From: Promethearchaeota archaeon
GTDB lineage: Archaea > Asgardarchaeota > Lokiarchaeia > Sigyniarchaeales > SOKP01
Length of the DNA: 54,748 nucleotides
Direction: 5' to 3'
Assembly: GCA_016840085.1 (NCBI GenBank)
Contig: JAEOTA010000072.1
Coordinates: 1 to 54,748 of the forward strand
The notes under the pieces are model-generated. The model had not been told where the DNA came from. It ran no database searches and saw only the letters and a program-made list of their open reading frames with translations. The position numbers were made by a program, and so were the translations under genes. This document shows, in pieces, positions 3 through 13,957 of the stretch; position 1 is the stretch's first letter, and every line of letters begins with the position of its first letter.

Positions 3-128
3 GAATTACCCCCTACTGCGTTTAAATTTAAACAAGAGGGGGATGATAAAGATTTAAAGAATATTGAAGAACATATGTTCGATTTACCTCCAGTTAAGGA
101 GGATAAAAAAGAAGAGGAGGAGGCATAG
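3..128 (+). CDS. hdrC: 3' end of probable heterodisulfide reductase subunit C (truncated by window edge)
   Basis: Open frame ELPPTAFKFKQ...EEEEA* ending at TAG 126-128, 2 nt before hdrB; ELPPT resembles the HdrC C-terminal motif; hdrCB order is standard. Confidence 0.65.
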   Translation, partial: ELPPTAFKFKQEGDDKDLKNIEEHMFDLPPVKEDKKEEEEA

Positions 129-130
129 AA

Positions 131-1051
131 ATGGTTAAAGAAAACACTTTTGCTTTCTTTTTAGGATGTTTAATGCCAAATCGATATCCTGCTATTGAAA
201 AATCAACGAAATTTGTAATGGATAAATTAGGATATGAACTCTTAGATATGGAGAGAGCAACCTGTTGCCCAGCTCCAGGAGTATTTCGATCTTTTAATAA
301 AGTTGATTGGATGGTAGCAGCAGCAAGAAATATTTGCATAGCAGAACAATTAGATGCTGATATATTAACTGTTTGCAATGGATGTTTCGGAACTCTCCAA
401 GAGGTTAACAAACACTTGAAAACAAATGAAGAACATCGTGGAATGGTAAATAAAAAATTGAAGCTTATTGGAGATTATGAATTTAAAGGAACGATAGATG
501 TTCGACATATTGCTGAAGTTTTAGGCTTTGAGATAGGTCCATGGGGAATTGAAGATCATATCGTTCGAAAAGTTAATGCTAGAGCTGCTATTCACTATGG
601 GTGTCATTTTTTGAAACCAACAAGGATTAGAGAGATTGAAAGTTCAGAAGGACCAACAATTGTAGAGGAATTTATTGAAGTATTAGGAATAGAATCAGTC
701 AGATTTAAAGAACAACTTACTTGCTGTGGAGCTGGAGGCGGGGTCAAAGCATATGATGGAAACTCAAGTATGATAATATTTGCTGATAAAATGAAAAATA
801 TTGATGAAGTAAAACCCGATTTTATTTTGGATATTTGTCCATTTTGTCATTTACAATATGAAACCGGACAAGATTACCTAAATAAGAATAAAAATTGTAA
901 TTATGATTACCCTGTAATTCATCTTTCTCAATTAACTGCCTATTGTATGGGGATGGATCAAGAATTTATTGGTCTACAATATCAATTAATGGGTAAAGAT
1001 TATATCTTTGGGAGAGAAGAAATAAAAAAGGAAGGAGAGGAGGCAATATAA
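131..1051 (+). CDS. hdrB: Heterodisulfide reductase subunit B (two CCG domains)
   Basis: FLGCLMPNRY, TCCPAPG, CNGC, HYGCH, CCGAGGG and CPFCHLQ motifs of the non-cubane Fe-S sites; GGAGG upstream. Confidence 0.95.
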   Translation: MVKENTFAFFLGCLMPNRYPAIEKSTKFVMDKLGYELLDMERATCCPAPGVFRSFNKVDWMVAAARNICIAEQLDADILTVCNGCFGTLQEVNKHLKTNEEHRGMVNKKLKLIGDYEFKGTIDVRHIAEVLGFEIGPWGIEDHIVRKVNARAAIHYGCHFLKPTRIREIESSEGPTIVEEFIEVLGIESVRFKEQLTCCGAGGGVKAYDGNSSMIIFADKMKNIDEVKPDFILDICPFCHLQYETGQDYLNKNKNCNYDYPVIHLSQLTAYCMGMDQEFIGLQYQLMGKDYIFGREEIKKEGEEAI

Positions 1052-3082
1052 TTGACAGTTAAAAATCAGAAAATAAAAGAAACAGAAGAGGTCGAGGGCA
1101 TGGTAATATCCGAAGATTCTAAAGAACCTAGAATTGGTGTTTTTGTTTGCCATTGCGGTCATAATATAGCTGGAACTGTTGATGTAGCTGAAGTCGCTGA
1201 GCATGCAAAAACTTTACCTAATGTTGTTAAAGCTGAACATTATATGTTTATGTGTTCAAAACCGGGAGTTCAGATGGTTAAAGATTCTATAAAGGAATTA
1301 GGAGTTAATCGAACTGTGGTAGCTTCTTGCTCTAAAAATCAACATGGCAAAACATTTGCTAGAGCAATTGAAGAAGTAGGTTTGAATAAACACCGTCATC
1401 AACAAGTTAACGTGAGAGAATATAATAGTTGGGTTCATAAAAAAGAAAAAGAAAAAGCAACTCAAAAAGCTATGAAGTTGGTTGAAGCAGGAGTGAATCG
1501 AGCTAGAAAATTAGAGGATGTAGAAACAAGAAGAATTCCAACAACAAAAGTGGCATTAGTTATAGGAGCGGGAATTGCTGGACTCCGATCAGCTTATGAC
1601 ATGGCGGAATTAGGAATTCCCGTATATTTAGTGGAAAAAGAATCTACTATTGGAGGTCATATGACTCGATTAAACAAAACCTTCCCAACTTTAGAGTGTC
1701 CACAATGTTCAATATCCCCTCTCACGAATGGAGTAGCTAATCATCCTTTAATAGAACTTTATACTAATGCTCAAGTGAAAAGCGTTGAGGGATCATTAGG
1801 AAACTTTGAAGTTGAGATTGAAGTTAAACCCAGGTATGTTAAAGATAATTGTACTTCTTGTGGCGAATGTGCTGCACATTGTCCTGTCGAATTACCCAGC
1901 GAATGGGATATGGGGATGTCCATGAGGAATGCAATCTATAAAGCATATCCACAAGCAATACCTGCTACTTATGTAAGAGATAAGAAAAATTGTATTGAAT
2001 GCAATACCTGTATTAATATTTGTCCTGTCCAAGCAATTGATTTCTCAATGAAACCAGAAACGAAAACTGTGAAGGTTGGTTCAATTATAGTTGCTGCTGG
2101 ATATGATGAATATGATCCTTCTGAAATTGAACCCTATCATTATGGACAAGAGGGATTCGAAGATGTGATTACACAATTAAAATTAGAACGGATGATGTCT
2201 CCAACATCGCTTACTAATAGTGAGGTTCTACGACCTTCTGATGGAAAAATCCCTAAAAGTGTTGTCATGATCCAATGTGTAGGAAGTCGAAATGATCAAG
2301 TTGGAAATCAATATTGTACTGGTGTATGTTGTAAATTTGCAATAAAAAATGCAAGAATTATTAAAGAAATGTATCCTGATACTGATGTATCAATATGTTA
2401 TATAGATATTCGAACACCAGGATTAAATTTTGAAGAATTATATAAATCTGCCCAAGAGATTGGGGTAAGGTTTATACGAGGAAGGCCATCCGAGATTATA
2501 AAAGATCCAATTTCGGGAGAATTACAAGTAATTGTTGAAGATACATTAAGTCAGACACCTTTAAAACTAAAAGCTGATTTAGTTGTTCTTTCTGCTGCTA
2601 TGGTTCCTCCTGAAGGAATTGGTCCACTTGGTTCTAAACTTCATGTTTTAAGGTCCAAAGAGGGATTTTTAAAAGAGTTTCATATAAAAATGAATCCTAC
2701 TTTAAGTAGTAAGGGAGGGATTTTCTTGGCAGGTGCAATTCAAGGTCCAAAGGATATTTCAGAAACGGTTGCTCATGCTGGTAATGCTGCTGCTTTAGCC
2801 GCAGCTCCTTTAGTGAAAGGATATATCGAAAAAGAAATACTAATTCCTTCGATTGATTATGATTTATGTGTAAATTGTGAACTTTGTAAAACAGTATGCG
2901 CTCCAGCAGCAATAGACATCGATGAAAATGGATCTCCAGTTATAAATGAAATTGCTTGTAAATCTTGTGGTATGTGTATGCCTGTATGTCCTACAGGCGC
3001 GATTCAATTAATAAATTTTAGAGATGATCAACTATTAGATGAAATAATTGCCGTATCTGGCGGAGGTGCTGTTTGCGAATGA
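1052..3082 (+). CDS. hdrA: Heterodisulfide reductase subunit A (FAD, electron-bifurcating type), TTG start
   Basis: GVFVCHCG, GAGIAG, LNKTFPTLECPQC, inserted and C-terminal 2x[4Fe-4S] ferredoxin domains, QCVGSR..YCTGVCC, QGPKDI. Confidence 0.97.
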   Translation: MTVKNQKIKETEEVEGMVISEDSKEPRIGVFVCHCGHNIAGTVDVAEVAEHAKTLPNVVKAEHYMFMCSKPGVQMVKDSIKELGVNRTVVASCSKNQHGKTFARAIEEVGLNKHRHQQVNVREYNSWVHKKEKEKATQKAMKLVEAGVNRARKLEDVETRRIPTTKVALVIGAGIAGLRSAYDMAELGIPVYLVEKESTIGGHMTRLNKTFPTLECPQCSISPLTNGVANHPLIELYTNAQVKSVEGSLGNFEVEIEVKPRYVKDNCTSCGECAAHCPVELPSEWDMGMSMRNAIYKAYPQAIPATYVRDKKNCIECNTCINICPVQAIDFSMKPETKTVKVGSIIVAAGYDEYDPSEIEPYHYGQEGFEDVITQLKLERMMSPTSLTNSEVLRPSDGKIPKSVVMIQCVGSRNDQVGNQYCTGVCCKFAIKNARIIKEMYPDTDVSICYIDIRTPGLNFEELYKSAQEIGVRFIRGRPSEIIKDPISGELQVIVEDTLSQTPLKLKADLVVLSAAMVPPEGIGPLGSKLHVLRSKEGFLKEFHIKMNPTLSSKGGIFLAGAIQGPKDISETVAHAGNAAALAAAPLVKGYIEKEILIPSIDYDLCVNCELCKTVCAPAAIDIDENGSPVINEIACKSCGMCMPVCPTGAIQLINFRDDQLLDEIIAVSGGGAVCE

Positions 3083-3531
3083 GTGTGTGTGAAATCACTG
3101 ACGAATTGATAAAAGAAAAGATTCAAGATGTTGTTGTTTTTATGTGTAACGAATGTGGTCAAGGATCTGCTAATACTGCGGGTGTTGCACGAATGGGATA
3201 TAATCCAGCAATAAGAATAATCAGAGTTCAATGTACAGGTCAAATTGGTCCTATTCAAATTATGGATGCATTAAATAATGGAGCAGATGCTGTTGCTTGC
3301 ATTGGATGCTGTTTAGGAGCTTGCCATTTTTTTAATGGAAATATACTTTCAATGCATAGAATTAAACTGATGAAGAAATTATGCAAAGAGTTAGGATATA
3401 GTGATCAATTTTTAAACCAATATACATCTCGAGCAGCAGAAGGCGAAACCGCTGTAGGTGATTTTGAAGATATTATAGATAGATTATCAACTGCAATTAA
3501 AGATGAGGGAACGATTAAAGATGGATGTTAA
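3079..3531 (+). CDS. mvhD: MvhD/FlpD [2Fe-2S] subunit
   Basis: FMCNEC, IRVQCTG, GCCLGACHFFNGN; likely start is ATG 3079, overlapping the hdrA stop (ATGA). Confidence 0.9.
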   Translation: MSVCEITDELIKEKIQDVVVFMCNECGQGSANTAGVARMGYNPAIRIIRVQCTGQIGPIQIMDALNNGADAVACIGCCLGACHFFNGNILSMHRIKLMKKLCKELGYSDQFLNQYTSRAAEGETAVGDFEDIIDRLSTAIKDEGTIKDGC

Positions 3532-4756
3532 AGTATTTCAATTCAATGGTTGCAATAAATGTTTTAACGAAACGTTACTCCTAAAGTTGGATTCGAATTA
3601 TAAAATACAATTTATAAAAGAACCACAAAATTGGAAAGGAGTAAAAACAGAAGTAGCTGTAATCACTGGATATCTATTACCAGATGATAAAGTACATCTA
3701 GAGAAAATTAAGGTAAACTCAGAACGAGTTATTGCATATGGAGATTGTACAACCATGGGAGGAGTTTTTGCATTAGCAAACCAAAATGGTTATGAAATTA
3801 CACCTTTAAAAGAATTTATTGATTATCAAATAAATGTTAATGGTTGTTTAGGGGAAATTGAAGAATTAAAGTCGGTGATTGACAGAAAAGAACCATCAAA
3901 ACTAAAATCTCTCTGTGAGGTGTGTGCACGCAAGGCAACTTGTGAATATTTAGATGCTGTATACCGTCAGATTGAATCAGATGATAAAGAAACGTGTTAT
4001 AATGATTTAGGATTTCTATGTAATGGATTTATAGCTAAAGAATGTAAAGAACGATGTATCAACTACAACACACCCTGCAGAGGTTGCAAACCAATGGTAG
4101 AAAGATCTGGTATTAGAATGTTAGGAATGTTCGGCACACTTATGGGAAATATTGAAATTGTTACTGAGCACTCTGAAAAGGGCGCAACTGATAAACTTGG
4201 AGATGAAGAAGATGATGTAACAAGAAGTTTACCTGATATTCTTGGTAACTTCTTTAGATTCACACTGCCTACCTCCGGTTTGCCTAAAGGAAGAATAAAA
4301 TCTTCAGGTACAACATTAGAAAATGTTTTTACAGGAAGATTAATTGAAGAATTGCCATTAATTTCTGGATTATTAGGGGGAAGTAAGTCAATTTCATTAA
4401 CACTAAAAATTATTGAATCCTATGAGGAGGCAAATCAAATTGAAATAAGCGAGAGAACAAAGAAATATCGTGAAGAATTATTGAAATTAGAAACAGATCT
4501 TGAGAAAGCGTTGGAAAATGAAGATTCAAAACAGTATAAAGAAATAACTAGTGAAATTCGAAAAATTGCTGGTAATATGAATTTATCTAACATCTTCTTT
4601 GGTGGATTTAAATCCCAAATTAATGAAAATGACAATTTTGATGATTACAAAAGCCACATTTTTGAAGTGGTTGAAGGAACCTATAAGCACGGTTCAGTTG
4701 AATATACAATAGATCCTAATGGTATAGTTAAAGAAATTAAGATTAAAGAGGGATGA
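3521..4756 (+). CDS. MvhG-like hydrogenase small subunit fused to a degenerate, Cys-less MvhA-like N-terminal fragment
   Basis: GCNKC, YGDC..GG, NGC, LCEVC, CYNDLGFLCNG, PCRGC and DILGNFFRFTLP match MvhG; the C-terminal ~150 aa resemble the large-subunit L1 region without cysteines; likely start ATG 3521. Confidence 0.8.
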   Translation: MDVKVFQFNGCNKCFNETLLLKLDSNYKIQFIKEPQNWKGVKTEVAVITGYLLPDDKVHLEKIKVNSERVIAYGDCTTMGGVFALANQNGYEITPLKEFIDYQINVNGCLGEIEELKSVIDRKEPSKLKSLCEVCARKATCEYLDAVYRQIESDDKETCYNDLGFLCNGFIAKECKERCINYNTPCRGCKPMVERSGIRMLGMFGTLMGNIEIVTEHSEKGATDKLGDEEDDVTRSLPDILGNFFRFTLPTSGLPKGRIKSSGTTLENVFTGRLIEELPLISGLLGGSKSISLTLKIIESYEEANQIEISERTKKYREELLKLETDLEKALENEDSKQYKEITSEIRKIAGNMNLSNIFFGGFKSQINENDNFDDYKSHIFEVVEGTYKHGSVEYTIDPNGIVKEIKIKEG

Positions 4757-7230
4757 ATATGAGTTTTGAATTATTGAAAAAAGAAATTATTGACGTTGGA
4801 TTATGCCAAGGTTGTGGATTATGTACCGGTTCCTGTAAGCATATTGAGATGGAAGTATTACGGCCTATATTAAAGGATTATTGTATCCTTGAAAGAGATG
4901 GACAAGATTGTGGCAAATGTTATCAAAGTTGTCCTCAAGTTATCCAGAAAAAGTTTAAACAAAAACAACCTAAAGCAATTTATTCTTTAAGAAGCAAAAA
5001 TCCTGAAATTTTGACTAAAGCTGCTAATGGTGGTGTAGTTACAACCCTAGCTAAAAATCTATTAGATAATCAATCACTTGCTAAAATAATTATGGTTCAA
5101 GATTTCAATGAAAAACCTCAAGCAGACATTGTAACTGACCCTGATGAAGTTGTAAAAAAGGCTGGAGTAGTATACGGACGTTCAGGAGTTTTAGAAAAAT
5201 TAGTAGAAGTTGTTGGAGAAACTTTCGAACCTATAGGAATAGTTGGGGTTCCTTGTGAGATGAGAGGTGCTGCTGAATTGGAGGAAGAAATGAATAGAGA
5301 AATTTTAAAAATTGGTTTATTTTGTAATTCTCAAATGCAAACAGAACAAACTGACAAAGGCATAGTATGTTCTCCTTGCTGTAGTGGTTGTCCATCAGGG
5401 GTAAATGCACAAGGATATATTTCCCTAATTAGACAAGGTCAATATCAAGACGCTGTTGATTTAATCCGTGAAAGTAACCCACTTCCTTCTATATGTGGAA
5501 GAATTTGTACTAATGAATGTGAACATGGTTGTACTTTGATTGGAGATGACCATCCAGTAGCAATCCGAGAACTAAAGAAATTCGTGACTGAATGGGAGAT
5601 AGAACAAGCTAAAAAGAATAGTGCAAAAGGTAAAAGAAATATTAAAAAAGGTGCTAAAAAAGTAGCAATTATAGGTTCTGGACCAGCAGGGTTAACTGCT
5701 GCATATTTTTTAAGAAGAATAGGGTATGCACCAACTATTTTTGAAAAATCAGATCAAACAGGAGGCATGCTAAGATTCGGAGTACCGCAATTTAGATTAC
5801 CAAATTATGTATTAGATTACGATGTACAAAATATTCAAAATTCAGGGGTCGAGATAATTCTAAATAAACCATTAGGACCCGAAATGACGATTGAAGACTT
5901 AAAAAATGATGGATTTGAAGCTATTTTTATCGCTACTGGCCAATATAAACTTCGGACACTTCATTTAGAAGGAGAAGACCTTCCTAATGTTCATGTAGCA
6001 ATTACGTTTCTAATGGATAGAAAATACCGCTATTGGGAAAATAAAGAAGAATTTAAGGGAAAAACTCTGGGGATAATTGGTGGTGGTCCTGTAGCAATTG
6101 ATGTTGCTCAAACAGCTCTTCGATTAGGTGCAACCAAAGTTCATCTTGTTGATATAATGACAGAAGGACAACTTGAACTAGTTTTAAAAGACATTCCAGA
6201 AAATGAAATTGATTATATGCAATATCATTTTACTACGTCAACATCTAGAATTACTCAGAATAATGAAGGAAAACTCATGTTAAATTGTTATAAAATTGAA
6301 TGGGGAACTCCTGATGAAAATGGTAAAAGACCGTTAAATAAGATTGAAGATTCAGATTATGAAATTCCAATTGATTCAATTGTAATTGCTGTTGGTCAAG
6401 CTGTTGATTTTGACCAGATTGATGTTGCTACTGATAATAAATTAGAAAAAGAGCGAAATAAGATTAAAATAAATGAAGTCACTTTTGAAACAAACATACC
6501 TGGAGTATTTGCAGGTGGAGACATAATTAATAATTCAAAAGCAGTAGCAATTGCGGCAATAGCTCATGGAAAAGAAGCTGCTATCTCAATAGATAAATTT
6601 CTAAAAGGAGAGGATTTAATAGCCGGACGATATAAACAAGATAAGATGTTTTTTACTGGACCTAAAAAATCTCCAAAAGATTATTCGCCTAAACCAGGAA
6701 ATTTAGAAGAAGCTACTGAAGAAATTCAGTGGAGTTTTGAAGAGATTGATCAAATGTTTAATGAAGATATGGCATTAAAAGAAGCTCGCCGATGTTTAAG
6801 TTGTAATCATTTTTGCTCTCATTGTCAAGATTTTCCAGCAATTTATTCTGATTTAACTGCTGGTGAAGTTGGTTCTCAAAAAGGATATACAACAGTTGTA
6901 GTTTGGACTGATAAAGGTAAAGAAATCGTAGAGTCAGCAATCAAAAACGGTTTATTTGAAGAAGGAGAAGTGAACGAGGGTGAATTAAACAAAGCAATTA
7001 ACCTAAAGTCAAAACGAGAGCTCTTAACTTTTGAAAAAACTCCAAGACAGCAAATCTTAGATTATATCACCATCCAAGGACAAAGTACTATAAGTGATCT
7101 GGCAAAACAGTTAGATATTGAACCTAAAAAAGTACGATATGAAGCACTTCGACTAGCTCAATTAATGCAAATTGAAATGAAAGTTGATCCTGATATGGAT
7201 GAGCCATTATTTACTTTAATATGTGATTAA
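4753..7230 (+). CDS. Ferredoxin-FrhB/FdhB family protein with an inserted GltD/NfnB-type FAD/NAD(P)H oxidoreductase module and C-terminal wHTH
   Basis: CQGCGLC..C, NGGVVT, VGVPCE, IGLFC (FrhB N-part); PCCSGCP, NPLPSICGRIC, GSGPAG, GGMLRFGVP, GGGPVA, FAGGD, EARRCLSC (GltD); CSHCQDF..DLTAGEVGS..TTVVV.TDKG (FrhB C-part); QQILDYI..TISDLAKQL (HTH). Confidence 0.85.
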   Translation: MNMSFELLKKEIIDVGLCQGCGLCTGSCKHIEMEVLRPILKDYCILERDGQDCGKCYQSCPQVIQKKFKQKQPKAIYSLRSKNPEILTKAANGGVVTTLAKNLLDNQSLAKIIMVQDFNEKPQADIVTDPDEVVKKAGVVYGRSGVLEKLVEVVGETFEPIGIVGVPCEMRGAAELEEEMNREILKIGLFCNSQMQTEQTDKGIVCSPCCSGCPSGVNAQGYISLIRQGQYQDAVDLIRESNPLPSICGRICTNECEHGCTLIGDDHPVAIRELKKFVTEWEIEQAKKNSAKGKRNIKKGAKKVAIIGSGPAGLTAAYFLRRIGYAPTIFEKSDQTGGMLRFGVPQFRLPNYVLDYDVQNIQNSGVEIILNKPLGPEMTIEDLKNDGFEAIFIATGQYKLRTLHLEGEDLPNVHVAITFLMDRKYRYWENKEEFKGKTLGIIGGGPVAIDVAQTALRLGATKVHLVDIMTEGQLELVLKDIPENEIDYMQYHFTTSTSRITQNNEGKLMLNCYKIEWGTPDENGKRPLNKIEDSDYEIPIDSIVIAVGQAVDFDQIDVATDNKLEKERNKIKINEVTFETNIPGVFAGGDIINNSKAVAIAAIAHGKEAAISIDKFLKGEDLIAGRYKQDKMFFTGPKKSPKDYSPKPGNLEEATEEIQWSFEEIDQMFNEDMALKEARRCLSCNHFCSHCQDFPAIYSDLTAGEVGSQKGYTTVVVWTDKGKEIVESAIKNGLFEEGEVNEGELNKAINLKSKRELLTFEKTPRQQILDYITIQGQSTISDLAKQLDIEPKKVRYEALRLAQLMQIEMKVDPDMDEPLFTLICD

Positions 7231-7264
7231 GACTAAAACTAATAAATATTAAAAGGTAAAGAAT

Positions 7265-7501
7265 ATGAAATTTGATATGGAATTAAATGTCTGCGGATTA
7301 GTATGTCCTGTTCCAGCTTTAAAAACAAAGAAACAACTCATGAAAATGAGACCTGGAACTGTTTTGAAGGTTATAACAGATTACAAACCGGCAAGTGAAT
7401 CTGTTCCACGTGATTTAGCAAAAACGAAACACAAGCATTTAGGAACAGACTTTATAGAAGACGATGAGCAATGGTATATCTATTTTGAAGCAGTGAAGTA
7501 A
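7265..7501 (+). CDS. tusA: TusA/SirA-family sulfur carrier protein
   Basis: LNVCGLVCPVP (CPxP motif), G.VLKVITD..A..SVP; 78 aa. Confidence 0.9.
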   Translation: MKFDMELNVCGLVCPVPALKTKKQLMKMRPGTVLKVITDYKPASESVPRDLAKTKHKHLGTDFIEDDEQWYIYFEAVK

Positions 7502-7641
7502 GATTAAAATTATATCTTTTTATCTTTATTTTTTATTAAATTTTATTCTCTTGATTTCAATTTTTACATTATATTTAAAATTATAAGTAGCTTATTAATG
7601 TTAATTATAGTTATAAGATTATAATTCCAATCAGAGGAGTA

Positions 7642-7918
7642 TATGTCTCAATCAGAACCAAGAGAATTAACTCAAGCTAAAGAATTATTTAAAGAAGGGA
7701 AATTAGTAGACTCTCTTCAATTATTAGAGGATTTAAAAAGGTGATACCTTAGAACGAGCAGCAAATATTACTGGAGCCTTATTGTGGGATCTTTTTGATG
7801 AAATGAAAAATCGGGGTATAACTTCAAAATTTGATATCGATCAAGAGAAAGAAACATATCTACGTGTTTTTGGGAAAGTTAATAAAGTATTAAAAGATAA
7901 AATAAGAGATCTTCAATA
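7642..7918 (+). pseudogene. Chimeric remnant: 5' end of a TPR-like gene joined out of frame to the 3' end of a UPF0175-like antitoxin
   Basis: GAGGAG then MSQSEPRELTQAKELFKEGKLVDSLQLLE*; in another frame TLERAANITGALLWDLFDEMKNRGI..DLQ*. Confidence 0.5.
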
Positions 7919-7980
7919 ATAAAGGATCAGCGTTTTGCAGAACCACTACCATAGTATATCCATGGGAAAAATATAAGTTT

Positions 7981-8148
7981 ACAATTGTTCAAACATTAGT
8001 GCCATTATTTGGAGTAATCTTCTCTGCTATATTTTTACAAGAGGAATTTGATGTTTCCATCTATCCTTTTGCCTTATTATTAGTAATATTTGGAATCACC
8101 CTTATAAATCGTAATTCCTCCTATAAAGAAGAAGAAAAATCTAGTTAA
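7981..8148 (+). pseudogene. EamA/DMT transporter 3' remnant (copy a)
   Basis: QTLVPLFGVIFSAIFLQEEF..PFALLLVIFGITLIN*; no 5' part; homologous to 9749-9910. Confidence 0.65.
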
Positions 8149-8232
8149 AGTGTTATAAAATGCAATTCAAATAAAATTTAAATTTTAACACTTCATAATA
8201 AATATTAATATATATATAGTATATTTGTATAC

Positions 8233-8532
8233 ATGAGGTATATTAATATGTCGATTGTGAAAATAAAAAATAAGAAAGCATTGGAACAGTTACAAGCTAA
8301 ATTAACACTAAGACTAGGGCGAAAAGCTACGCAGATAGAAATACTTGATTATTGTTTAATATTAGCAAATGATAATTTTGAAAAATTGGTGGAATTAGTG
8401 ACCTGCATGCCAATTTTAAGTCTTGAAAAATCTGAGCAAATTATCGAAGCGAGAAATAAACTTAAGAATGTAATTTATGATGAAGAAGCTTCCTTTGGCA
8501 GTAGAGATGATGAAGATATTTATAATGAATAA
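8233..8532 (+). CDS. Putative VapB-type antitoxin
   Basis: Small protein with basic N-terminus and acidic tail (RDDEDIYNE), directly upstream of a PIN gene. Confidence 0.7.
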   Translation: MRYINMSIVKIKNKKALEQLQAKLTLRLGRKATQIEILDYCLILANDNFEKLVELVTCMPILSLEKSEQIIEARNKLKNVIYDEEASFGSRDDEDIYNE

Positions 8533-8541
8533 TTCAGTATA

Positions 8542-9003
8542 ATGGTGAGAATAATGGGGGTTTTTCTTGATACGGGGTTTTACTTGGGGTTGTGTCATCC
8601 TAAAGATCAACATGCACAAGAAAGTGAAAAAATGTTGAAATTGCTTAGTATGGGAGAGCATGGATTATTATATAGTTCCAATCTTATCATTAGTGAAGTC
8701 ACAACTTTAGCAGCTGTGCGTTCCAATAATAATGTCAATGTATTAAACCATCTCGGAAATTTAATATGGGGAAAACAAAAAATTGCCACAGTCTTACATT
8801 TTGAATCGTATTTAGAATCTGAAACTTGGGAATTATTTAAGAAAATAAATACCATCGATTTGAAAGACTCAAGGCCAATGAGTTTTGTTGATGTATCATC
8901 AATTGTTTTATGTCAACACCATCAAATTGATAAAATTGTAAGTTTTGATCCACATTTCGATAGATTTTTGGAAAAAATCAAAATGCTTCGTATTACTGAC
9001 TGA
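8542..9003 (+). CDS. vapC: VapC/PIN-domain toxin
   Basis: VFLDTG, HPKDQH, IISE, MSFVD, IVSFDPHF PIN motifs. Confidence 0.92.
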   Translation: MVRIMGVFLDTGFYLGLCHPKDQHAQESEKMLKLLSMGEHGLLYSSNLIISEVTTLAAVRSNNNVNVLNHLGNLIWGKQKIATVLHFESYLESETWELFKKINTIDLKDSRPMSFVDVSSIVLCQHHQIDKIVSFDPHFDRFLEKIKMLRITD

Positions 9004-13222: not shown

Positions 13223-13957
13223 ATGGAGAATATTAGTAATTTATTTCAAAAAATTCTTAAATCTAAAAATCCCGAAGAACTTAATGATTTTTTAATTAAA
13301 TTAAGTGAGGATCCTAGTAATGAGTACCTTAATTTCATAGATCATTTTATTAATAATTTGGAAATTCAAATCTTAGAAAAAATAAAATTAAACTTAATTT
13401 TTGTTCTTGGCGAAATCGGCAAAATTGTATCAATGGATGAGAAATACTTAGAATTTTTATCAGAAACTTACTATACCTCAGATAGATGGATAAGGAAAGA
13501 AATAATCCAAGCATTCCATAAAATCTCTGAAAACACAGCATTAGCAAATAAAACTATAGAATTAGTTGGGTATGCATTAAACGATGATTATATTCCCATT
13601 AAAATTAGCGCTCAAAAAGTATTATTATCTTTAAGAGTGCTTCCAAATAAAATATTAAAAAACATTTTTCATACGTTAAATTCTAAGGAATCCGAAGTGA
13701 TAAATTATAGTTCAAAAATTTTTGAGAAGCATTTTAAAGATACTAACCAATTATTCACTTCATTAAAGGAATCAGAAAATTTTAAGATTTTAAAACCACA
13801 AGGAGTTAGAACCCTTCTCTTAATTTGTTTTAAATCTTTAATCAATTTAGAAGCACTTAGAGAGATGATATTAGGCTCGGATTGGCCTGATACCTCTAAA
13901 ACGGTTTACTTAAAAGAAATTAAAACGTATGAAAGGATTTTGTTAAAAAATCTATAA
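13223..13957 (+). CDS. HEAT/ARM-repeat protein
   Basis: Helical repeats FVLGEIG, DRWIRKEIIQA, ALNDDYIPIK. Confidence 0.65.
   Translation: MENISNLFQKILKSKNPEELNDFLIKLSEDPSNEYLNFIDHFINNLEIQILEKIKLNLIFVLGEIGKIVSMDEKYLEFLSETYYTSDRWIRKEIIQAFHKISENTALANKTIELVGYALNDDYIPIKISAQKVLLSLRVLPNKILKNIFHTLNSKESEVINYSSKIFEKHFKDTNQLFTSLKESENFKILKPQGVRTLLLICFKSLINLEALREMILGSDWPDTSKTVYLKEIKTYERILLKNL

Follow-up and report, generated by a model that had tools for sequence, protein, structure and literature searches.

In class I methanogens, heterodisulfide reductase (Hdr) forms the complexes MvhAGD-HdrABC and VhuAUGD-HdrABC (PDB 5ODC, 9SFI and 9SW2), in which a hydrogenase with a Ni-Fe site provides H2 input. In the characterised ElpABC-HdrABC (Nomura et al. 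2025, PMC12350162), a dead subunit derived from formate dehydrogenase and a flavoprotein of the FrhB/FdhB family take the place of Mvh, with coenzyme F420H2 as donor and the coenzyme M-coenzyme B heterodisulfide (CoM-S-S-CoB) as the couple reduced. FlxABCD-HdrABC and the type III GltD-inserted HdrA, or HdrL (PMC12054007), are NADH-linked Hdr systems associated with DsrC, the GltD insertion adding a nicotinamide site to HdrA. In the sHdr-LbpA systems (PMC11094781), an Hdr-like complex with the layout C1B1A-hyp-C2B2 and lipoate-binding proteins is always accompanied by the TusA and DsrE sulfur transferases. Here we describe a cluster of seven co-oriented genes, hdrC(tail)-hdrB-hdrA-mvhD-mvhG::A'-frhB::gltD-wHTH-tusA, where A' denotes an MvhA remnant and wHTH a winged helix-turn-helix. 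It occupies positions 3-7501 of a stretch of 54,748 nucleotides (nt), contig JAEOTA010000072.1, referred to as the window, which is contig C68 of a 4.68-Mb Lokiarchaeia genome (98.8% complete). The system is a variant of the Hdr family, and what is new in it is the dead hydrogenase arm together with a most likely NADH input, the idea being partly in print.

Copies of the cluster have been read differently. Kurth et al. 2021 (PMC8630106) named the one of Methermicoccus shengliensis FrhBG-HdrA2B2C2 and interpreted it as an F420H2:CoM-S-S-CoB/ferredoxin enzyme; it is transcribed, FrhB, 'FrhG' and HdrC2 were detected in the proteome, and a table in the same paper shows that tusA and two dsrE-type genes flank the cluster and co-vary with it. 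This locus (BP07_RS03515-03555) is orthologous to ours, with the order dsrE-dsrE-hdrCBA-mvhD-'frhG'-frhB-tusA and the same flanks as loci L079 and L083, and its 'FrhG' is an MvhG::A' fusion, 32% identical to the window protein. The MvhA remnant is unmentioned by Kurth et al. and tusA and dsrE lie outside their model; what the Lokiarchaeia copy has beyond the methanogen one is the GltD insert and a more extensive relay. Nobs et al. 2025 (bioRxiv 10.1101/2025.07.22.663070) proposed for Nerearchaeum marumarumayae, as a figure-legend hypothesis, an H2-driven Hdr reduction of TusA/DsrE persulfides, with H2 coming from a group 3c hydrogenase. The genes LOKIASV2_09800-09920 appear to be the same set, judged by consecutive locus tags alone; 09900 is labelled as an ordinary MvhG, and no entry for 09910, which occupies the place of the FrhB::GltD gene, was found in the supplement. 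Finally, Orsi et al. (10.1101/826495) reported Lokiarchaeia hdrABC and frhB expressed without mvhADG, which fits a dead-arm cluster and does not identify this locus. No description of the MvhA remnant or of the FrhB::GltD subunit was found in a literature search that mostly excluded subscription papers. The original prediction, made from the window's letters, had put the system forward as its best candidate for an undescribed one, which goes too far, the methanogen copy having been named by Kurth et al. and the Hdr-TusA/DsrE persulfide link proposed by Nobs et al.

The comparison covered 151 Lokiarchaeia genomes, with 40 Lokiarchaeia loci compared for gene order, and residue conservation was counted over alignment rows (42 for most proteins, 39 for HdrB). 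The tail of the MvhG::A' fusion (residues ~263-378) aligns to MvhA 39-187 (HH-align probability 95, E 3e-8), and its profile retrieves from the PDB the FrhA, VhuA, MvhA and SHI-alpha chains, i.e., [NiFe] large subunits (best E 4.4e-6), so that the vestigial MvhA guessed from the letters is real. In this remnant the L1 nickel motif RxCGxC has become GLLGG, cysteine is absent from residues 256-411, the L2 motif (DPCxxCxxH) is absent, with CxxC in none of 24 tails, and PF00374 does not match. A C-terminal hairpin considered as the equivalent of MvhA 353-396 was rejected, the match not being significant (HH-align probability 1.5). The fusion was folded as a whole chain; from close homologues only, its predicted local distance difference test (pLDDT) score was 52, and a deeper alignment raised it to 92.8. 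In the latter model, the MvhG part matches 5ODC_E (Z 21.0, root-mean-square deviation (rmsd) 3.2, 245 residues aligned), and the whole chain matches FrhA 6QGT_A up to residue 411 (Z 10.6, rmsd 6.2), a match of the remnant to large subunits that is supporting only at an rmsd of ~6.

The remnant retains the L1 helices and the GG..HP loop region of MvhA, which we take to contact the small subunit; it would therefore cap MvhG and shut out an intact MvhA. As judged from sequence and model, the hydrogenase arm is dead and the Fe-S wire of MvhG and MvhD is retained, as had been predicted, with 13 cysteines of MvhG and six of MvhD conserved in all rows (Table 1). Of the features of a group 3c [NiFe]-hydrogenase-Hdr, the locus has MvhD and an MvhG with three clusters and lacks a large subunit with Ni ligands. 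Compared with the class I methanogen Mvh/Vhu-Hdr, the Lokiarchaeia complex has neither a Ni-Fe site nor H2 input; it has gained a flavoprotein, is linked to sulfur carriers and belongs to a host that is no methanogen. It resembles Elp-Hdr in that a dead enzyme subunit and an FrhB/FdhB-family flavoprotein replace the H2 input, and differs from it in that the dead part derives from MvhA. Pseudogene decay of the cluster was ruled out by the open frames and the invariant cysteines across the 42 rows.

The Hdr core, by contrast with the hydrogenase arm, is intact in its key residues and of the class I methanogen type, the nearest chains to HdrA, HdrB and MvhG being those of the Mvh/Vhu-Hdr structures, with shared bifurcation and active-site residues. 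HdrB has 9SFI, 8RVU and 5ODC as best PDB matches (E~1e-88) and keeps its non-cubane cluster ligand cysteines in 39/39 rows, together with H159 (39/39) and E91 (38/39), the equivalents of the proton-path residues H154 and E87 (PMC13518236). HdrA keeps E379 and K432 in 42/42 rows, corresponding to the bifurcation residues E356 and K409 of 5ODC (PMC12054007), and with these in place it probably still bifurcates. Full-length HdrC, as seen in relatives, has a 2[4Fe-4S] domain.

Electrons would enter through the sixth subunit. Alignment with insert-free orthologues shows a GltD/NfnB-type insert of ~490 amino acids (aa) that splits FrhB between GLFC and CxxC, and the PDB matches of the subunit are the NfnA/formate dehydrogenase diaphorase and FrhB. 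The four FrhB cluster cysteines are invariant, the GltD cysteines and flavin adenine dinucleotide (FAD) motifs are kept in ~39 of 42 rows, and in 38 of 39 GltD inserts the second Rossmann strand is followed by Asp or Glu rather than by the Tyr-Arg-Arg (YRR) of the NADPH type, which occurs only in locus L048. The FrhB segment between GLFC and CxxC, which we take to form the F420 side, is present in the continuous FrhB of M. shengliensis and lost in the window. F420H2 is therefore an unlikely donor here, because GltD replaces this segment and bears an NADH-type motif, and the motifs make NADH the most likely donor in this genome. The predicted replacement of H2 by NAD(P)H or F420H2 thus narrows to NADH and loses its F420H2 branch. 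We consider it improbable that F420H2 is nevertheless the donor through the FrhB half, or that the main role of the sixth subunit is redox-sensing regulation, through its ferredoxin and winged helix, with a separate true donor. The invariant FrhB cysteines, an F420 ligase gene in the genome, the full FrhB of M. shengliensis and the retention of ferredoxin and wHTH, and nothing else, in every variant would agree with such a reading, whereas the displacement of the presumed F420 side and the conservation of the GltD cysteines and FAD motifs argue against it.

The donor module varies between lineages, from a full FrhB (M. shengliensis) or a lid-less FrhB (Thorarchaeota and one Lokiarchaeia locus, L063) to an NADH-type GltD (most Lokiarchaeia), an NADPH-type GltD (L048) and a ferredoxin-wHTH only (Candidatus Harpocratesius repetitus). 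On these sequences the module is exchangeable while TusA stays constant. Of the sixth subunit, nothing but the N-terminal ferredoxin and the C-terminal winged helix (~7030-7227 in the window, 8365-8793 in L039) is retained across all lineages. In L048 (genome G074, 6134-8605), the subunit with the YRR insert is only 52% identical, compared with ~71% for relatives, which suggests that its GltD insert was swapped in. A second frhB::gltD paralogue (42-47%) lies directly downstream of tusA in L042 (1647-4090) and L132. The cluster is like the Flx and HdrL systems in its NADH link and GltD insertion; the insert is in FrhB and not in HdrA, the association is with TusA/DsrE and not with DsrC, and no flxABC genes were found in the 40 loci.

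An intact hydrogenase exists in the same genome. A separate Mvh/Vhu locus of the selenocysteine (Sec) type, at C41:11240-15568, contains mvhG, mvhA with RICGIC, hdrC, hdrB and hyp genes, and at 13907 a VhuU-like open reading frame (ORF) of 49 aa carries the L2 motif and contains an in-frame TGA, probably read as Sec. The C41 MvhG has 440 aa with a duplicated C-terminal cluster domain, and its MvhA lacks L2, as do 26 of 30 MvhA sequences of the Lokiarchaeia class at their C terminus. A PF00374 large subunit is found in 142/151 genomes of the class and in 61/65 of those that bear the cluster. The suggestion that loci of the present kind are miscounted as evidence of H2 metabolism is weak, because the host encodes the intact selenocysteine hydrogenase elsewhere, and in its stated form it is not supported, given these counts and the failure of PF00374 to match the remnant. 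The same genes bear on whether this Hdr nonetheless draws on H2, fed by the intact group 3c hydrogenase as in the model of Nobs et al. Besides the C41 genes and the large subunit in most cluster genomes, this would be consistent with the thiosulfate importer YeeE/TsuA lying 2-9 kb from an intact mvhA in 18 genomes of the class. We regard it as very improbable: the intact hydrogenase already has its own mvhG, hdrC and hdrB, the fused remnant keeps the MvhA segments that presumably face the small subunit and should bar a second large subunit, and the operon brings its own flavin input. The importer lies 2.3-8.5 kb from mvhA (e.g., G106:C1:3731626/3736261 and G060:C13:122185/124721), and an H2-using Hdr locus may therefore also be sulfur-linked.

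The core gene order is the same in 40/40 loci and a 3' tusA is present in 38, so that the predicted co-conservation of frhB::gltD and tusA with this hdr cluster was borne out. Upstream of hdrC, tusA-dsrE-dsrF occurs in 30/40 loci, dsrH in 31/40 and dsrE2 in 33/40; nine of the loci without the upstream set are contig ends and the other is the rearranged H. repetitus. The carrier cysteine is kept in the upstream TusA, DsrE and DsrE2. The operon of the window is incomplete, since in relatives it begins ~2.5 kb further upstream with tusA-dsrE-dsrF-dsrH-dsrE2, and a tusA-dsrE-dsrF ~90% identical to that of a close relative lies at the end of contig C15 of the same genome. As in sHdr-LbpA, an Hdr complex is thus found with TusA and DsrE transferases, here with active cysteines present; the 40 loci each have one BC pair of the methanogen type plus MvhD/G, and a search confined to the cluster found no gene for LbpA.

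The MvhG::A' gene occurs in 65/151 Lokiarchaeia genomes, in a further Asgard family (6 genomes, two of them named Thorarchaeota) and in Methermicoccaceae, and the full cluster in P. syntrophicum MK-D1 (DSAG12_01149 region) and Ca. L. ossiferum B35; the family is small, since among 1.8 billion proteins 20 representatives reach E<=1e-30. Among the 151 genomes, 62 have both the dedicated TusA and MvhG::A', 3 and 10 have one of the two and 76 have neither, most single occurrences being contig breaks. More weight is carried by the recurrence of the link, as far as sequence comparison goes, in three distant lineages: in Thorarchaeota and in M. shengliensis the cluster is bordered by the same TusA, and tusA stands on either side of the cluster, which together rule out chance adjacency. 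Its C14, P15 and P17 are invariant in 36 orthologues from the three lineages, and conservation of the 3' TusA equals that of HdrA (70-73% in distant Lokiarchaeia, compared with 41-54% for MvhG::A'). In M. shengliensis, tusA and dsrE transcripts vary with the hdr genes, tusA and hdrA at r=0.97, calculated on 6 non-independent values that come from two strains (PMC8630106 Table S2).

We lean, at somewhat less than even confidence, towards a reductive, H2-independent sulfane-sulfur sink for a fermenter, built on a soluble HdrABC-MvhD complex whose former [NiFe]-hydrogenase serves as electron-input arm. In this genome, NADH would be oxidised at the flavin of the inserted GltD, and electrons would pass through the clusters of GltD, FrhB and the ferredoxin to MvhG, an Fe-S wire capped by its fused, metal-free MvhA fragment, then to MvhD and the HdrA flavin. 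There they would be split, one branch going to ferredoxin and the other through HdrC to HdrB, which would release sulfide by reducing a persulfide or a disulfide carried by the dedicated TusA, TusA having been loaded by DsrE/F/H/E2. We infer the single complex, the electron path, bifurcation, the TusA-persulfide substrate and the direction, the roles of TusA and DsrE being read from genomic association. The more general statement, that a methanogen-type bifurcating HdrABC uses a dedicated-TusA persulfide as its disulfide couple and is fed through a hydrogenase-derived wire from swappable donors, is possible and offered with some reserve.

Several points weigh against reductive persulfide turnover on TusA. 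The co-occurrence counts overstate the link, kin genomes not being independent, and the dedicated TusA group has a tree support of only 69/84. HdrB passes the cut-off of TIGR03288, the equivalog model of CoM-S-S-CoB reductase, its methanogen copy sits in a CoM/CoB-rich cell, and this genome has a ComDE-like pair. In this genome no YeeE/TsuA importer was found, and the distribution of the importer does not follow that of the cluster (24/75). A complex prediction for HdrB and TusA scored 0.00, the controls were not folded, and it counts neither for nor against. Potentials are -320 mV for NADH, ~-260 mV for sulfane sulfur and -420 to -500 mV for ferredoxin; the direction is therefore unsure, reductive bifurcation from NADH being near equilibrium or uphill.

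These potentials favour an oxidative confurcation, in which reduced ferredoxin and TusA-SH or HS- would reduce NAD+ and make protein persulfide for a TusA/DsrEFH biosynthetic relay of the TusBCD kind. DsrE/F/H match the TusD/C/B models weakly, no NIR_SIR sulfite reductase was found in the genome, and sHdr systems oxidise TusA/DsrE-bound sulfur (PMC11094781). We nevertheless hold it to be quite unlikely: in M. shengliensis ZC-1 grown on methanol, transcripts reach 0.6-1.4 times the ribosomal-protein mean, which looks high for a small biosynthetic flux, and the genome already has IscS-IscU-DsrE-TusA on contig C14. At C14:42003-48383, a 796-aa FAD oxidoreductase-like ORF with two rhodanese domains adjoins iscU, iscS, dsrE and tusA and is a candidate NpsR-like persulfide reductase.

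The TIGR03288 scores of HdrB (360 and 439 bits) and its ~51-53% identity to Methermicoccus HdrB would also suit the same dead-hydrogenase, NADH- or F420H2-fed complex acting on a small disulfide, CoM-S-S-CoB in Methermicoccus and X-S-S-X in Asgards, with TusA/DsrE as co-regulated helpers that, for example, supply sulfur to clusters or cofactors. Kurth et al. interpret the methanogen copy in this way (PMC8630106), and Imachi 2019 shows a thiol/disulfide pair without a name. The ComD/ComE-like sulfopyruvate decarboxylase pair at C71:33955-35009 scores above the TIGR03846 cut-off; the coenzyme M pathway is only partly found in this 98.8% complete genome, ComA not being found and cysteate synthase lying far below cut-off. 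The 3' TusA, conserved like HdrA, also speaks against mere helpers. Operon-encoded TusA/DsrE are not known to be required by class I methanogen Hdr complexes. We judge the small disulfide unlikely, although by no means negligible, and return to persulfide on TusA as the preferred substrate.

The predicted operon was confirmed by the ORF coordinates (Table 1), by intergenic gaps of 2, 0, -4, -11, 2 and 34 nt (5' to 3') and by Pfam/NCBIfam profiles for every domain. No gene for a large subunit, maturation protease, Fdh or Flx was found within 3-7501. A search for promoter and terminator patterns around tusA was negative, the consensus being bacterial and of little weight. A 188-nt direct repeat, 77% identical, at 7382-7565 and 11534-11712 copies the 3' end of tusA and encloses ~4 kb with PIN/ribbon-helix-helix (RHH) toxin-antitoxin-like pairs and gene fragments; with comparable duplicates of the tusA 3' end in L131 and L136, it looks like an insertion with a long target duplication at a hot spot.

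Table 1. Genes and parts of the hdr-tusA cluster (positions in the window)
Feature	Position	Strand	Evidence
hdrC 3' end	3..128	+	last 41 codons only, cut by contig edge; 97% identity to a relative's HdrC C-terminus
hdrB, class I methanogen type	131..1051	+	two CCG domains; TIGR03288 360.5 bits (cut-off 345.15)
hdrA	1052..3082	+	FAD site and all Fe-S motifs; 5ODC_A E 1e-194
mvhD, [2Fe-2S] connector	3079..3531	+	PF02662 E 1.5e-30; six Cys 42/42
mvhG::A' fusion gene, 411 aa	3521..4756	+	MvhG part and MvhA remnant
MvhG part, residues 1-~262	3521..4306	+	three Fe-S cluster sites; 13 Cys 42/42
MvhA remnant (A'), ~150 aa	4307..4756	+	no Cys, no Ni/Fe ligands; HH-align to MvhA
frhB::gltD-wHTH (sixth subunit), 823 aa	4759..7230	+	2[4Fe-4S] ferredoxin - FrhB N-half - GltD/NfnB insert - FrhB C-half - winged helix
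tusA	7265..7501	+	PF01206 E 6e-19; CPxP intact (C14)

The case for H2 metabolism in Lokiarchaeia is unchanged by this cluster, the intact hydrogenase being retained elsewhere. Two published readings are challenged: the methanogen 'FrhG' is MvhG fused to a dead MvhA, and the Lokiarchaeia Hdr-persulfide model of Nobs et al. need not use H2, the dead arm and NADH input calling that part into question. With Elp-Hdr as its parallel, the arm is a second instance of a wire kept from a dead enzyme. Cultured organisms that carry the cluster are MK-D1, B35 and M. shengliensis, a methanogen in pure culture that expresses it. The cluster supplies a concrete candidate for the substrate of Hdr in non-methanogenic Asgard archaea, for which the MK-D1 models show only a nameless thiol/disulfide pair. 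If the preferred reading is true, the complex would be a soluble reductase of sulfane sulfur, or an enzyme that activates sulfide, in Asgard archaea and one methanogen family, and the X-S-S-X of one Asgard Hdr would get a name.

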